Shown here: in pieces, positions 2,132 to 58,948 of the stretch
Layout of the letters: the number at the start of each line of letters is the position of its first letter
Numbering within the stretch: the stretch's first letter is position 1
Assembly: GCA_951406725.2 (NCBI GenBank)
Contig: OX597821.1
Location: 23,870,001 to 23,934,000 of the forward strand
DNA length: 64,000 nucleotides
Direction: 5' to 3'
Origin: Octopus vulgaris
Lineage: Eukaryota
Position numbers and translations under genes: made by a program
The notes under the pieces: generated by a model
The model's input: only the letters and a program-made list of their open reading frames with translations
Told to the model about the DNA's origin: nothing
Database searches by the model: none

Positions 2132-3850
2132 GTAAGATCTTACATTAAACTGATTGCAATGAAAATTGTCACCTTTAGCATCGCTCTCATCATTATCATC
2201 ATCATTTTCGCCATCATTTATGAGTCTTGAAAAAAACTTACTGTATGGCATATCATCATCATCATCATCATCATTATAATCATCATCATCATTTGAACAT
2301 CCACTTTTCCATCCATGCATGCAAGCGTAGGTTGGTGGAATTTGTTGGGGAAGATTTTTTCTAAGGCCAGATTCCCTACCTGTCCCCATCTTTTACCTGT
2401 TCCCAAGCAAGATAATATTTCCCTGTGGCCAGACGTGGTTTTTAAGGAAGATTGGAAAAAAAAACAAATGACACTAGTTTACATTCCTCATGCAATGTCA
2501 CTCCTCCTCACACATAGCATAGATACATACATATTTCTTCACCACCACCACCACCACCACCACCACCATCCTTTAATGTCCCTCTTCCATGGTGGCATGT
2601 GTTGGACTGTTCGACAGGAAATAACAGGACCAAGGACTGCATTGTGCTCCAATGTCTGATTTTCACAGGTGGGTGTGCTTTACAGCTGGACACCCATCCT
2701 AATGCCAACAACTTTATAGCATGCATTGTTGCAGTTTGTATTTTTTTCCATGGTACAAGCACTGTTGGGGTTACAGCCCATAAGACTGAGTGGGACTACA
2801 GTAGAGAGGAAGGCAGCTAAATGCTCGATGATAAGAGGAGTCAGATCAGGACAGATTTCTTACAGAACGCCAACACTCTTCATTAACTTGACTACACATT
2901 GTAGAAGACCAAGTATGAGTAACTGGAATGGGGCTGGAAAGAGAGATACAATAGTGATGATGAGTTATCAGGGTGGATTCTGAAAGTACAAGGTGAACAG
3001 GAGTGGGAACAGAGGAGCTGGGAAAGTGGGTAGAGATTGCAGGAGAGCATGGGGTTAGCAATGGACAGTTAGAGATGAGGAAGCGGTGAGGGAGAAAATA
3101 TAATGAATAACAAATGTTGAGTGGGTAGTTGAAGGTAAATACATATTTCCATCATTGTGTCAAAAGCTCAAATTCCATGCTTATACCATTTCACTAGTTT
3201 AGAAGCAAAAAACTCCCTGCACCAGTTTTCAAGCTCATCCATATTGTTGACCCTCTATTCATGCAGGAAATGTTTGCAAAGGGCCTTAAAGTTAACCTAG
3301 CTAAGACCAAAGTTGTTGTTAGTAAGAAAAAAGATAAAACTCTCAATATGTAGAAAAGGAGCTAAAAAAATTCCATTTGCTGCACCTATTGTAAACTATG
3401 GACACATAAGAGGTGCAGCGGAATCACAGGTAGATTAACAGATAAAGTTATCTTTGTATGTGGTAGATGTGCAGGAACAAAAGCACTAAGAGTACACAGG
3501 ATTTAGAGTCTCTCAAATGCTGTACTCTTTCACTACAACTTTCTCTCACTCTTTCTTCTGTTGACCTGCTTGCTTAGCCAGTGGGGTGGCATCACTTGAT
3601 GGCTAAAACAATGCAAAGCGCATTGTGACCAGCGATGTGTAGCAGCATCTGATAGCCTGGTTGGTCACGTGATCATGTGATATATATATATACTAGCATA
3701 CGGGTCATAGTGCTAGTTTGGTATAAATTTGTTAAATTAAAAATTTGGGGTAATAAAACATACAATGACATATTAAAAAAAACGAATTAAAATTCCAGAG
3801 AAAAATACATAGTAGATAAATATACAAATTTACAAAAATACATAAAAGTT

Positions 3851-3932
3851 CATCTATGGGCCATTTCGGAGACGCACCAATTAATATGAAACATATCATA
3901 TATTTAAAATTGGTACTCCCCTCGTCAGGATG
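3851..3932 (-). ncRNA. Minimal type I hammerhead ribozyme, AUA cleavage site
   Basis: Minus strand: CAUC-CUGACGA-GGGGAGUACCAAUU...AAUUGGUGCGUCUCC-GAAA-UGGCCC-AUA|GAUG. Stem I is CAUC/GAUG, stem II is a long hairpin, and the catalytic core is complete. Confidence 0.8.
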
Positions 3933-4661
3933 TTTTTTACACACAACACATAGTACATGGAAACAAATGCACAATTACATACCTGCTACATGTGAAAGAC
4001 CAGACATTACATGCTCCCAAAAATTCTCATAGATACTGAATGCTACTTTATAAGCATATAATTCAATCTAGCAGCTATAGTAAATGGTATGCGCACAGCT
4101 CCATCTGGACTAATTCACTTCTACACTCGATTAAATTTTTCATCTTTTAATTTTTCCCATTCATGCAAAGCCACATATTCAAGTTCAAATCCTTGATACA
4201 TTTTATACTAATTGCTATTTTTTCTTTTAATTGTTATATTACAATTTAATTACCATTTTAATAAAATAAAATATATTTAATTACTACCTACTATATTTAC
4301 TATATTTAATTCAATTGTTATTATTACCTCTAACTTTTATTGCAATTTTTATTTTTAAATTTCTTATGGAACGTTGAGTGGATCTTATGCATACAATATA
4401 TTTTTATATGATGTTTATATATTTATATATTACTATATATTTCTAAATGTCAGACTTTATGTCTGTTCTGTAGATATAATTGAATATATGTATGTGTATG
4501 ATCTTTCTGTGGATTTTGTAGTGCTCTTGTAGTTGCTGCTCGCATTGCCTCCCCTCGGATTAAAAAGTGTATACAGCTCATTTGAGCACTACTATTCCAG
4601 TCTGTTATATATTTTGATCGTTGTTGTCAATAACGATCTCAAGATATAACTTTATATTTTG

Positions 4662-42647: not shown

Positions 42648-42809
42648 CTGTAAAAGTAGAAATGGTAAGAATTATTACATATTCAGAATAGTGCTGTAAA
42701 TAATGATCGTGAAATGCTGGCACAGTTTCTGTCTTAGTCATTATAAGTATTACAGAGTGTCTAGCTGGGTTGATAGACAAACAGGTACATAGACATGGAT
42801 ATATATATA

Positions 42810-43138
42810 TGGCTCAGTGGTTAGAGCGTCGAGCTTACGATCGTGAGGTTGTGAGCTCGAATCCCGGACCGGGCTGCGTGTTGTGTTCTTGAGTAAGACA
42901 CTTTATTTCACGTTGCTCCAGTTCACTCAGCTGTAGAAATGAGTTGCGACGTCACAGGTGCCAAGCTGTATCGACCTTTGTCTTTCCCTTGGATAACACT
43001 GGTAGCGTGGAGAGGGGAGGCCAGTATGCATGGGCGACTACTGGTCTTCCATAAAACAACCTTGCCCAGACTTGTGCCTCAGAGGGTAACTCTCTAGGTG
43101 CAAACCCATGGTCACTCATGACTGAAGGGGGTCTTTAA
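42810..43138 (+). mobile_element. tRNA-derived SINE family C. Other copies: ~20737-21074(-), 49540-49882(-)
   Basis: TGGCTCAGTGG A box and GCTCGAATCCC B box; three similar copies. Confidence 0.8.
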
Positions 43139-44103
43139 TATATATATATATATATGCGCGTGGCTTTGGGGCTAGGGTGTTGAACTCATGATCGTAAGGT
43201 TGTGGTTTCGATTCCTGGACTGGGCGATGCGTTGTGTTCTTGAGCAAAACACTTCATTTCACGTTGTTCCAGTCCACTCAGCTGGCAAAAATGAGTGATC
43301 CTGCGATGGACCAGTGTCCCGTCCAGGTGGGGAATTTCTACGCCGCTGAAACCGGGAAACCGGCCCTTACGAGCCTAGCATGGCTCCAGAAGGAATATTT
43401 ATTTTAGTCCAACCCATGCTAGTGCGGGAAACGGACGCTAAACGATGATGATATATATATATTAGGGAGTATAACTCCAAACTTACAGGGAAAAATTCAA
43501 TTTAGTATTAAATCAAATTTCACAATATAAATATATAAAATATAAATTAGAGATAAAACCACTATTATTCAACTCAGTGACAGACATAAATCAAAACATA
43601 AATAACAAATAATATATATTTATAACTAGATCTCAAAAAGTATAAAAATGAATGATCAATATTGTTTGAGTTGCACAATAGTGGTTTTATCTCTAATTTA
43701 TATTATATATATATATATATATATATACAAATTGAGATAGGGGTTGTGAGTGCAACCCACCCTGGGATACCATATATCCAATATGCTGCTAGTGAAGTAC
43801 CCAACAAAGTTAATACATAAATGTTAAGAATTGCGATGCAATTAATTCATTTATTGTATTATATGGGCAAAGGTAAAATGTTTTACCACAAATTAATAAT
43901 ACAAAATAAGAAAATGGAGAAATACACCTTAATCAATAATCAACTACCAGATAATACCCAATCACAATTTATTAACCCAATACATATGAATATCAAGGTC
44001 AAACATGATAGTATAGAACAAAACAATGCACATCAATGATACAATATGATACAATAAGTACAATATGTATAAGTGAATATAAATAAATATAAATATAAAC
44101 TAC

Positions 44104-44230
44104 ATCTTACAGCTGTTTCAGCCATGCAGATATGGGTATCTCATTATGCTCATATTAGCCAGGTGTGATAAGTTAATATGTGGTTATAAATGAGACACTT
44201 ACAAAAATATCCCAAGGCCTCTTCAGAGAT
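44104..44230 (-). ncRNA. Minimal type I hammerhead ribozyme with ~100-nt stem II, GUA cleavage site
   Basis: Minus strand: AUCU-CUGAAGA-GGCC...GGCU-GAAAC-AGCU-GUA|AGAU. Stem III is the palindrome CAGCUG. Stem II pairs internally (GAUAU/AUAUC, GUGUCUCAUU/AAUGAGAUAC, CAUAUUA/UAAUAUG). Confidence 0.82.
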
Positions 44231-44499
44231 TATAAAATACAAGCTAAACTAAATATGAATATCAGAGGAGGTACACCCATACAAGAGTGGGTACATACCC
44301 ATAATATATAATATACACATACATATGAGTGCATATACCCATACTCCTATATATATATACACACATATACATAATAATATACAACAATATACATACATAT
44401 GTTCTATATTCAAGGTTACTGCTGTTGTTAGTCAACAACAACTATCGGCGATGTATTTTTCATTTGTCACTGTTATTTATGACCCGTTCGTGCATTTGT

Positions 44500-44601
44500 A
44501 CTGGTTTTAGCTCTAAGGTTTTAGGGTTTTAGGGTTAGGGTCAGGGTTTTAGGGTTAGGGTTAAGGTGTTAGGGTTACGGTTTTAGGGTTAGGATTAAGG
44601 T
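44500..44601 (+). repeat. Interstitial telomere-like (TTAGGG)n tract
   Basis: Degenerate TTAGGG/TTTTAGGG array. Confidence 0.85.
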
Positions 44602-45149
44602 TCTTGTTGACAAACAACAGCAGTAATTTTATTCAGCTGAATACACATCATTGATTGGTTGAAATTACCAAAATACGACAACTTTAACATGAAATAACTT
44701 CCTAAATATAAGCTTTTCTCAAAAACGCTAAGAGTAAAAGATGTTTTATATGACACATTCTACTAGTGTCCGAAGTTTGAAAGTGTTTAGTTACAAAAAA
44801 TTATTTTTTAAATCTGTTGGTCAAAAGGTAAAGATCCAATTCTCATTTATAGCTATCATACTATGTTAAGATGAGGAGACACACACACACACACACGCAC
44901 TGTATTTTCAAGCATATAAGGTGCACCCCGATTTTGGCAGGCTGAACCTGCAAAAAATAAAAATGATAACTGCAGCTAACCCTGAATATCCTAGCTAAAT
45001 GTCTCACACATTTTCATGTATAGGAACCATGAGAATTTAAACTAATGCCTTTTGGTAAAGCTATTATGTATGGCAGGCTAAGTTACTATACTTACTTTAA
45101 CACTACCAAATATCATCATTGACCTCTACCATCACCATTATTGTCTATT

Positions 45150-45532
45150 GTGGAGGCGCAATGGCCCAGTGGTTAGGGCAGCGGACTCGCGGTCGTAGGA
45201 TCGCGGTTTCGATTCCCAGACTGGGCGTTGTGAGTCTTTATTGAGCGAAAACACCCAAAGCTCCATGAGGCTCCGGCAGGGATGGTGGTGATCCCTGCTG
45301 TACTCTTTCACCACAACTTTCTCTCACTCTTACTTCCTGTTTCTGTTGTACCTGTATTTCAAAGGGCCGGCCTTGTCACTCTCTGTGTCAAGCTGAATAT
45401 CCCCGAGAACTACATTAAGGGTACACGTGTCTGTGGAGTGCTCAGCCACTTACACATTAATTTCACGAGCAGGCTGTTCCGTTGATCGGATCAACCGGAA
45501 CCCTCGTTGTCGTAATCCGACAGAGTGCTTCC
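45150..45532 (+). mobile_element. tRNA-derived SINE family B. Other copies: ~1406-1782(+), 8425-8803(-), 41565-41937(-), 47502-47882(+)
   Basis: Head GGCGCAATGGCCCAGTGGTTAGG...GGTTTCGATTCC. TSDs visible, e.g. TATCAGTAAT around the 41565 copy and TTTACAGTT around the 47502 copy. Confidence 0.85.
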
Positions 45533-45987
45533 TTCCTATTGTCTATCATTAATAACACTAACCAAATCTACCCAAAGCCCAACCTTCAGCAAATAAGATG
45601 CAGGGTGACTTTTAGGGGTAATGTTTTGGAAAAATGTATGCCTTAGAGGCCAGAAAATACAATATATAAAGGGTTTTTTTTAGAAGACACTTGCCAAAGT
45701 GCCTTAGAGTGGGACTGAACTCGAAACCATGTGGTTGAGAAGTAAACTTCTTAACCACACAATCATGCTTACACTGAGGAAAATGGAAGGACAAATGTAA
45801 CATATAGAGTGAGAGCACTGAAAGGTGCCAAGATGTAAGTTGCAAAAGAAAAGAATGCTTTGGATCAAGATATTGTGCAAATTTTTGTAAATTTTGAGAA
45901 AACAAGAGAGAAAGATTCGGTAAGATAGAAGCAGTCTGAGGGTCACAGGAATGGAAATGAAAGTTATTAAGAATACATTAGTCTTAC

Positions 45988-51769: not shown

Positions 51770-53440
51770 CTGACACAAAAAAAATGAATAAATAAATAAA
51801 TAAATAAAAACAAGCCATAATGATATGCTGGTGGTAAGCCGTAAACTCCTAATGAAGTTACAGGAGTCCAAAACACGATGCCCAAAATGCACAAGAGACA
51901 CCATGTCTTGAGATATGGCATTTTGGGATAAATCTTTCGCTTTTTACTAAAGATTTCAGTGGGGAGGAACATTTTAATGAGTCTATAGACTTATTTTTGA
52001 AAGCCTCATCTTGGGTATTTTAAACATGCCCAGCCCATCATTCCCAAGGTTTGAACACAACTGATGTCTCACATAGGGAAAGAGTGTGAGAGGAAGTGAG
52101 AAAGAGGAGAAATGACCCCAGTACTTTATTTATCAAAACTGAAAGGTGAAGTTGACCCCAGTACAGTACTGGTACTTTATTTATCAAAACTGAAAGGCAA
52201 AATTGATGCCAGTGGAATCTAAACTCAAGGTACAGAAAGATGAAATGACTATTGCAATGAATTCAATCTTGAGATAAAATAACTGCTACATCATTGCTTT
52301 AACCTTTATGTTATCATATTTCTATTGAAAGTTAATTTTGAAAATAATAAAGAATTTAGTAAAATGGCTTTGTCCTTACTAAGCTAGCATTTGGAACATA
52401 GATTAACATGGAATTGTAATGGAAGATATTAATTTAGAAGTCCGTATCATAGAACCAGGAGCAGTCTCATACAGGTTGGTATCAAGGGAGCTAATGATAT
52501 GTTAGTATAGTGCTATGATGGTATAATTCTCTAAATTAGCAAGACTATGGTTCTAATTAGTTCAGGCTCAACTAAAATGTCATTTAATAAGTGGTATTTA
52601 TTTAATCCACACTCACATAGCAAAAATGGATCCTAGCAAGATTTGAGCTTGAAATTATGAGAGTTCTGGTGCTCTATTGCTTATTCCACACAACTACAGT
52701 ACACATTATTAATAATTGTACCTGTGAAGACCCACCCACCACAACAGAATCGAGATTCTAAAACCAAGGTGTTGTGTAAAAACCATTAGTGCAGGTACTG
52801 GTGTCACGTAAAAAGCACCTGTGGTGGTGTCATGTGAAAAGCACCCAGTACACTTTGTGGAGTGGTTAACATTAGGAAGGGCATCTAGCTATAGAAACCA
52901 AGTCAAAACAAAGGAACCTTGTGCAGCCCCTGGCCTTGCCACTTCCTGTCAAGCCATTAAAACCCATGCTAGTATGGAAAACAGACATTAAATGGTGATG
53001 ATGATGTCACTGACAAAGCTAGCAACTTCTAGAGGACACACAGCAATATTATTTAAATTATTTTTTTCTTGTCCTGTACTTTTCTAGACTTCATTATTGC
53101 TTGTTCTGTACCTTCCCAGGTTCGATATTTAAGAAAATTCTAAGATTCTGCAACCACCATTTTTCATTCTGGTACACTCTTTCTCTCTCAGTTCATTTAT
53201 GCTTTGTCATTCATTAGCACTAACATTCCATATCACAGATACAATATGCTACCTAGCGCAGGAATTGAACCCATGACATGGTCATGAACCTAACCCCCTA
53301 ACCACTAGGCCACATGGCTTCACATACACCCCCCCCACACACACACACAAATATACATTTTGATTTTTTTTTTGATTTGATTTTTTTTTTTTTGGATTTT
53401 TTAGTTTCAGCTCATGAGCTGTGGCCATGCTGGGGCACCG

Positions 53441-58875: not shown

Positions 58876-58948
58876 TCTTACTGAAGAGCCAGCCTGAGTA
58901 AATAAATATTATTTTTATTACTGAATTTGGCGAAACTGCAGTATAAGA
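58876..58948 (+). ncRNA. Minimal type I hammerhead ribozyme, GUA cleavage site
   Basis: UCUUA-CUGAAGA-GCCA...UGGC-GAAAC-UGCA-GUA|UAAGA. Stem I is a perfect 5-bp helix and stem III is the palindrome CUGCAG. Confidence 0.85.

Follow-up and report, generated by a model that had tools for sequence, protein, structure and literature searches.

The hammerhead motif on the minus strand of an intron in an octopus choline transporter-like gene is best read as part of the 5'-truncated tail of a Hydra-clade Penelope-like element (PLE). Its ribozyme probably requires dimerization or the aid of the element's protein to cut the RNA of the element itself, and the lone intronic copy is likely silent; we put the probability of this reading at about 0.75. 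PLE hammerheads and the Hydra clade are already known, and the new trait is the length of stem II, which is predicted to form a rod of ~30-38 bp. Positions refer to the window, a stretch of 64,000 nucleotides of Octopus vulgaris (contig OX597821.1, positions 23,870,001 to 23,934,000), and the features are collected in Table 1.

Table 1. Features of the hammerhead-bearing insertion and its surroundings (window coordinates)
Feature	Position	Strand	Remarks
Type I hammerhead motif	44230-44104	minus	predicted cut 44108/44107 after GUA
Core CUGAAGA	44220..44226	minus	CUGANGA intact in 28/30 best copies
Stem II, 100-nt predicted rod	44120..44219	minus	4-bp base, ~7-9 bp helix, asymmetric internal loop, 10-bp helix, apical helix
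Palindromic stem III ACAGCUGU (dimer type)	44109..44116	minus	predicted hairpin +2.4, intermolecular duplex -11.1 kcal/mol
5'-truncated 3' end (pLTR/3' UTR + tail) of putative Hydra-clade PLE	43728..44419	minus	92-96% identical to dispersed copies
~174-nt 3' extension (tail)	43728..43901	minus	on one end only of inverted family insertions
(TA)n tract at 3' junction	43699..43727		likely target site; other copies too end in (TA)n
Host intron, choline transporter-like (CTL1/SLC44A) gene	42651..45987	minus	tblastn with octopus CTL1 protein
Separate high-copy repeat	44416..44837		one whole ~240 bp arm, TTAGGG-like core, 68 bp of other arm

Read on the minus strand, the motif has the form AUCU-CUGAAGA-[100 nt]-GAAA-CAGCUG-UA^AGAU, with the core order of a type I hammerhead (CUGANGA ... 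GAAA ... NUH). In the hammerhead numbering (C3-G8, A15.1-U16.1, H17), the C3-G8 and A15.1-U16.1 pairs are present, as are stems I, II and III with stem I open, which is the type I arrangement; self-cleavage is a prediction. A genome pattern search (2.8 Gb) with both core halves and an insert of 80-108 nt gave 976 matches, compared with 0 for the reversed pattern, which excludes a chance origin. The motif is thus real, at the place and with the cut site given in the preliminary description. The insert is 100 nt long including GGCC and GGCU and 92 nt between them, instead of the 96 nt first counted. Stem I comprises 4 bp, paired in 81% of cells with two-sided changes in 2 pairs, while the base of stem II is invariant among copies but was fixed by the search pattern. 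Rfam models at their gathering thresholds did not detect the hammerhead in the window, where the sole match was a U5 snRNA-like copy (51903-52018, plus strand) that barely exceeds its gathering score and adjoins a CTL1 exon on the opposite strand. A type I descriptor scan of the window returned three matches, namely 44230-44104 and two further motifs. One (58876-58948, plus strand) has a 44-nt insert and the palindromic stem III ACUGCAGU and lies antisense in a CTL1 intron; the other (3932-3851, minus strand) has a 54-nt insert and stem III AUGGCCCAU, is followed after ~160 nt by a (TA)n end and is probably another PLE tail.

To identify the host element, 251 bases around the motif were compared with the genome. 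This gave 1362 first-look candidates, and the 40 of these that were scored were all near-full-length matches at 93-100% identity. Comparison with the 30 best copies places the unit between 44419 and the (TA)n tract at 43727, and since other copies extend further 5', the window copy is 5'-truncated. It would have inserted at (TA)n, with reverse transcription stopping 311 nt upstream of the cut. Of the (TA)-rich bounds initially proposed, the tract at the 3' junction was retained, but the tract at 44300-44383 is internal and the unit had to be corrected to 44419-43728. Long copies (loci L031, L032 and L034) reach ~3 kb upstream into a broken open reading frame (ORF) that ends in a GIY-YIG-type domain. 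When 20 loci were selected by this ORF (L071-L090), 15 had the long-stem motif in the same orientation 3' of the ORF, at a distance of 1.2-2.7 kb and in one case 5.2 kb, and no motif was found within the stretch fetched at the other five. An additional motif copy upstream of the ORF was present on the same strand at L075 and L076 and inverted at L086 and L089. The hammerhead thus sits in the 3' end of an ORF-bearing PLE and not in a distinct ribozyme-bearing element, as had been supposed. An upstream same-strand ORF with reverse transcriptase (RT) and C-terminal GIY-YIG domains, the EN+ architecture, was found in the relatives and not in the window copy. A Pfam scan of one ORF piece gave no match, and the RT and GIY-YIG assignments rest on motifs and homologues.

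The natural frames of the ORF carry RWK, DKT, YRDD, CxCx5C, CxxC-E and N..CxH. RWK, DKT, the CxCx5C linker, and CxxC and CxH beside E and N are marks of the Hydra clade in the available text of Craig et al. (2021; PMC8557442). Because the motifs of the ORF fit this definition, the element is placed in the Hydra clade, by motifs and not by an RT tree; the Neptune clade was rejected by the same motif test. By eye, the octopus protein resembles that of Hydra-1_Obim in the supplement of that paper, an octopus member of the clade. As far as this source goes, the EN+ PLEs of the Hydra clade share with the octopus family not only these motifs but also the C-terminal GIY-YIG domain, the (TA)n target, inverted truncated partners and, close to the 3' end, a type I hammerhead whose palindromic stem III has 3-4 bp. 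The preference for (TA)n was evident here as well: copy 3' ends fall into two classes ~174 nt apart, each followed by (TA)n. Of eight distinct inverted insertions in the 30 best copies, seven combine an end of one class with an end of the other, and five more such insertions were seen elsewhere. The PLE layout was therefore recovered, with a pLTR or partial tandem, inverted 5'-truncated partners and a tail at one end. According to PMC8557442 a PLE carries an inverted truncated partner and a tail of 30-40 bp, whereas the octopus tail measures ~174 nt. The octopus family further differs from the published elements in an Asn-rich stretch before the linker and in a 3' non-coding part of 1.2-3.3 kb before the motif, while published Hydra elements are mostly below 3 kb in all. 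Tail ends were observed at 43902 and 43728 of the window and likewise at loci L003, L008, L025-L027 and L030. At L032 (positions 3674-4640), a long Asn-rich stretch separates the thumb from the linker in the element's protein, and a tandem repeat of ~110 bp occurs in the 3' non-coding part. At L009, L010, L014, L021, L034 and L035, four contig 20 copies are part of ~13 kb segmental duplications that include a TPR-repeat ORF.

The surroundings of the insertion were analyzed next. Searching with the octopus CTL1 protein by tblastn located the flanking CTL1/SLC44A exons at 46119-45988 and 42650-42552. Both are on the minus strand, which makes the motif intronic and sense and agrees with the placement described before. 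The 5' end of the PLE borders on a repeat that had been taken for an inverted Penelope terminus. This repeat has 3309 genome candidates and a full unit of ~610 bp, in which arms of ~240 bp ending in GGATC surround a telomere-like TTAGGG core of variable length. Target duplications of 8 bp were found in 6/8 other copies checked. The long terminal inverted repeats and the target duplications rule out a Penelope terminus and set the repeat apart from the PLE; we take it to be a truncated MITE-like DNA transposon. Where the PLE begins, one arm is cut to 68 bp, and the two are joined via four shared bases.

Subsequently, folding of the stem II insert was investigated. The insert of the window copy folds into one rod of nested helices (-23.4 kcal/mol), as the preliminary description had it, but the support from this single copy is weak (z -1.6, with 25/300 shuffles as good), and the 191-nt region around the motif folds with a z of +0.37. 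Loci L071-L120 yielded 41 motif copies, in which the insert measures 82-108 nt; it forms a single unbranched hairpin in 37 of 39 distinct sequences. The mean z of these 39 inserts, computed without the four pattern-fixed pairs, was -2.8, with 23 below -2 and 7 above -1. Homologues keep both the core, which is intact in most of the best copies (Table 1), and a long paired stem II. Covariation was assessed on a MAFFT alignment of 38 rows with the structure taken from the window copy, a choice that favours that structure. It was paired in 79.7% of cells, compared with 72.3% in shuffled and 33-45% in slid controls, and two-sided changes numbered 128, compared with 55 in shuffles. Neither the number of pairs with a two-sided change (32/500) nor the number of pair types (173/500), the two measures that kinship inflates least, reached significance on this alignment, and RNAalifold did not recover the rod from it, finding only 6 stem II pairs. 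With the copies merged into 10 subfamilies, pairing was present in 193 of 268 cells and two-sided change in 19 of 28 inner pairs, compared with 6-12 when slid. Compensatory changes between subfamilies are thus present, but the two stricter measures and RNAalifold do not follow them. The lower two thirds of the rod are well supported and the apex, where the helix pairs in 61% of cells of the MAFFT alignment, only loosely. Within the subfamily, substitutions hit 5/486 core, 37/1727 paired and 32/972 loop positions, a weak trend in the expected direction; these rates come from 27 of 30 copies, after three segmental duplicates were dropped, and are biased by the choice of best hits.

Insert length is not fixed in the octopus genome. 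A looser pattern matched 197, 957, 404 and 72 times for inserts of 10-40, 41-71, 102-132 and 133-163 nt, respectively, while the controls for these bins gave 3, 5, 9 and 0 matches. Some of the long-bin matches are false pairings or fold other than as rods, and in the bin of 133-163 nt 11 of 15 examined have a z above -1.9. In L164 and several matches of 102-132 and 133-163 nt, the asymmetric loop of stem II is expanded by (TA)n or a (CAT)n hairpin is inserted at the apex, showing one way in which the arm can grow. L141, L142, L151, L156 and L158 represent sequence-unrelated hammerhead-like families with inserts of 116-147 nt, some of them predicted to be branched.

In the rows for Hydra elements in File S2 of PMC8557442, the stem II insert is ~11-26 nt long, as opposed to 82-108 nt in the octopus family, and the longest insert of that file, from a spikemoss element, is ~53 nt. 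The minimal dimer-type hammerheads of metazoan PLEs described in the accessible part of Cervera and de la Pena (2014; PMC4209133) share the short stem I, the palindromic stem III and the lack of a visible loop-loop contact, and they too occur mostly as lone truncated copies or as inverted pairs 100-700 bp apart. Helix II of such hammerheads spans 4-8 bp and has a small loop, dimensions that the octopus inserts far exceed, and a helix II called 'larger than usual' there has 6-8 bp, as opposed to ~30-38 predicted pairs. A 'long' helix II likewise means 6-8 bp in what is available of PMC13725137. The discontinuous Clec2 hammerhead also has a large insert in one arm and lies in a host transcript (PMC6155905, in the sections at hand). 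It is, however, of type III with the insert in helix I, while the octopus motif is of type I with the insert in stem II; moreover, Clec2 and the intronic amniote hammerheads are conserved single loci and the octopus motif is a young transposon copy. No PLE stem II of comparable size was found in the literature searched; Lunse et al. (2017), which may show such variants, and the supplements of PMC4209133 and 10.64898/2026.07.22.740005 lay outside that search. Long-stem motifs in other organisms were also sought by a pattern scan of metagenomes; its 112 matches, none combining stems I and II with the palindrome, were read as chance and are uninformative.

The stem III palindrome ACAGCUGU is short, as in the minimal dimer-type PLE hammerheads. 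In three sequence contexts the hammerhead fold of the monomer was 7-9 kcal/mol above the minimum, and in all three minimum-energy folds the 3' strand of stem II pairs over the cut site. No matching same-strand partner for a stem III dimer was found in the window. Available passages on metazoan PLE hammerheads report no cleavage of monomers and low cleavage of dimers (PMC4209133; PMC6765202), and the anole PLE hammerhead, as described in the part of PMC11167929 at hand, cuts only with the protein of the element, is not needed for insertion in vitro and yields no reads ending at the cut. Given a stem III of the dimer type and a monomer whose predicted fold is an inactive hairpin, cleavage of the CTL1 pre-mRNA by the lone copy, as suggested by the preliminary description, appears unlikely. 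We instead propose that two copies carried in the same orientation by a tandem PLE transcript may pair via ACAGCUGU to give an active core, so that the motif would process tandem element transcripts while a lone copy would be mostly silent. For activity of the family there is one weak hint in the 5' ends. When 30 copies were selected by the sequence 3' of the cut, 9 had their start between positions -25 and +17, a frequency ~2.5-fold higher than further upstream, and 2 were compatible with a start at +1 once shared bases were allowed for. Such ends would be explained equally well by microhomology in TA-rich sequence or by a stall at the fold.

Since no conserved stem I extension or loop sequence marking a tertiary contact was found across 20 copies, we regard a paired spacer as the best reading of the arm, although contacts of a non-canonical kind may exist. 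It might be closed simply to hold the two core halves together, with selection keeping it paired and not preserving its sequence or length, and loop II could have been free to grow because minimal hammerheads lack a contact between loops I and II. A rod kept across approximately 10 subfamilies may, on the other hand, do more than spacing, as its asymmetric internal loop lies at a similar distance from the core (~11-12 bp in most subfamilies, by eye). Stem II could then be a working module, either a rod on which the RT-endonuclease docks or an off-switch that holds until a protein or a partner copy binds. The pairing kept between subfamilies, the predicted monomer hairpin that hides the cut site and the protein-assisted cleavage known for one PLE (PMC11167929, in its available part) fit this idea, but the loop sequences differ between subfamilies, other families in the same genome manage with 16-60 nt, and the inner 'off' hairpin was fixed by the search pattern, which makes its recurrence no test. 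We consider such a module unlikely. Slightly less credit still is given to the bolder version for octopus Hydra-clade PLEs, in which the 30-38 bp rod would be a family-specific RT-endonuclease handle and protein-gated switch and cleavage in vivo would set the 5' ends of some new copies.

It is very improbable that the window copy was co-opted to cut or edit the CTL1 pre-mRNA. Its sense orientation in the intron, its intact core and the precedent of conserved intronic hammerheads in amniotes (PMC6155905, sections at hand) would suit such a role. However, it is one among hundreds of dispersed copies at 93-98% identity and hence young, and at such a copy number sense intronic landings are expected by chance. 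The dimer-type stem III and the missing partner in the window also speak against it, as does the longest perfect helix, which spans 10 bp. A protein-free, retrozyme-like unit spreading as small circular RNA is largely refuted and has hardly any probability left: most copies are short and non-coding and animal retrozymes are reported, in the text available, to be PLE-derived (10.64898/2026.07.22.740005), but the 5' ends are scattered where a non-LTR retrozyme would be a non-coding monomer of fixed length, the 30 best copies include no head-to-tail monomer array, and the long ones extend into the ORF.

The finding points to no new mode of host-gene regulation, and a role in the host gene is unsupported. 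It bears on how hammerheads are searched for. The core search in the available text of PMC8557442 allows a spacer of 7-17 nt, and short stem II limits of this kind leave over a thousand such motifs in one genome unannotated. PLEs said to lack a ribozyme may therefore merit a second look, and the natural series of inserts from ~16 to >100 nt on one core offers a ready test set for the function of PLE hammerheads.
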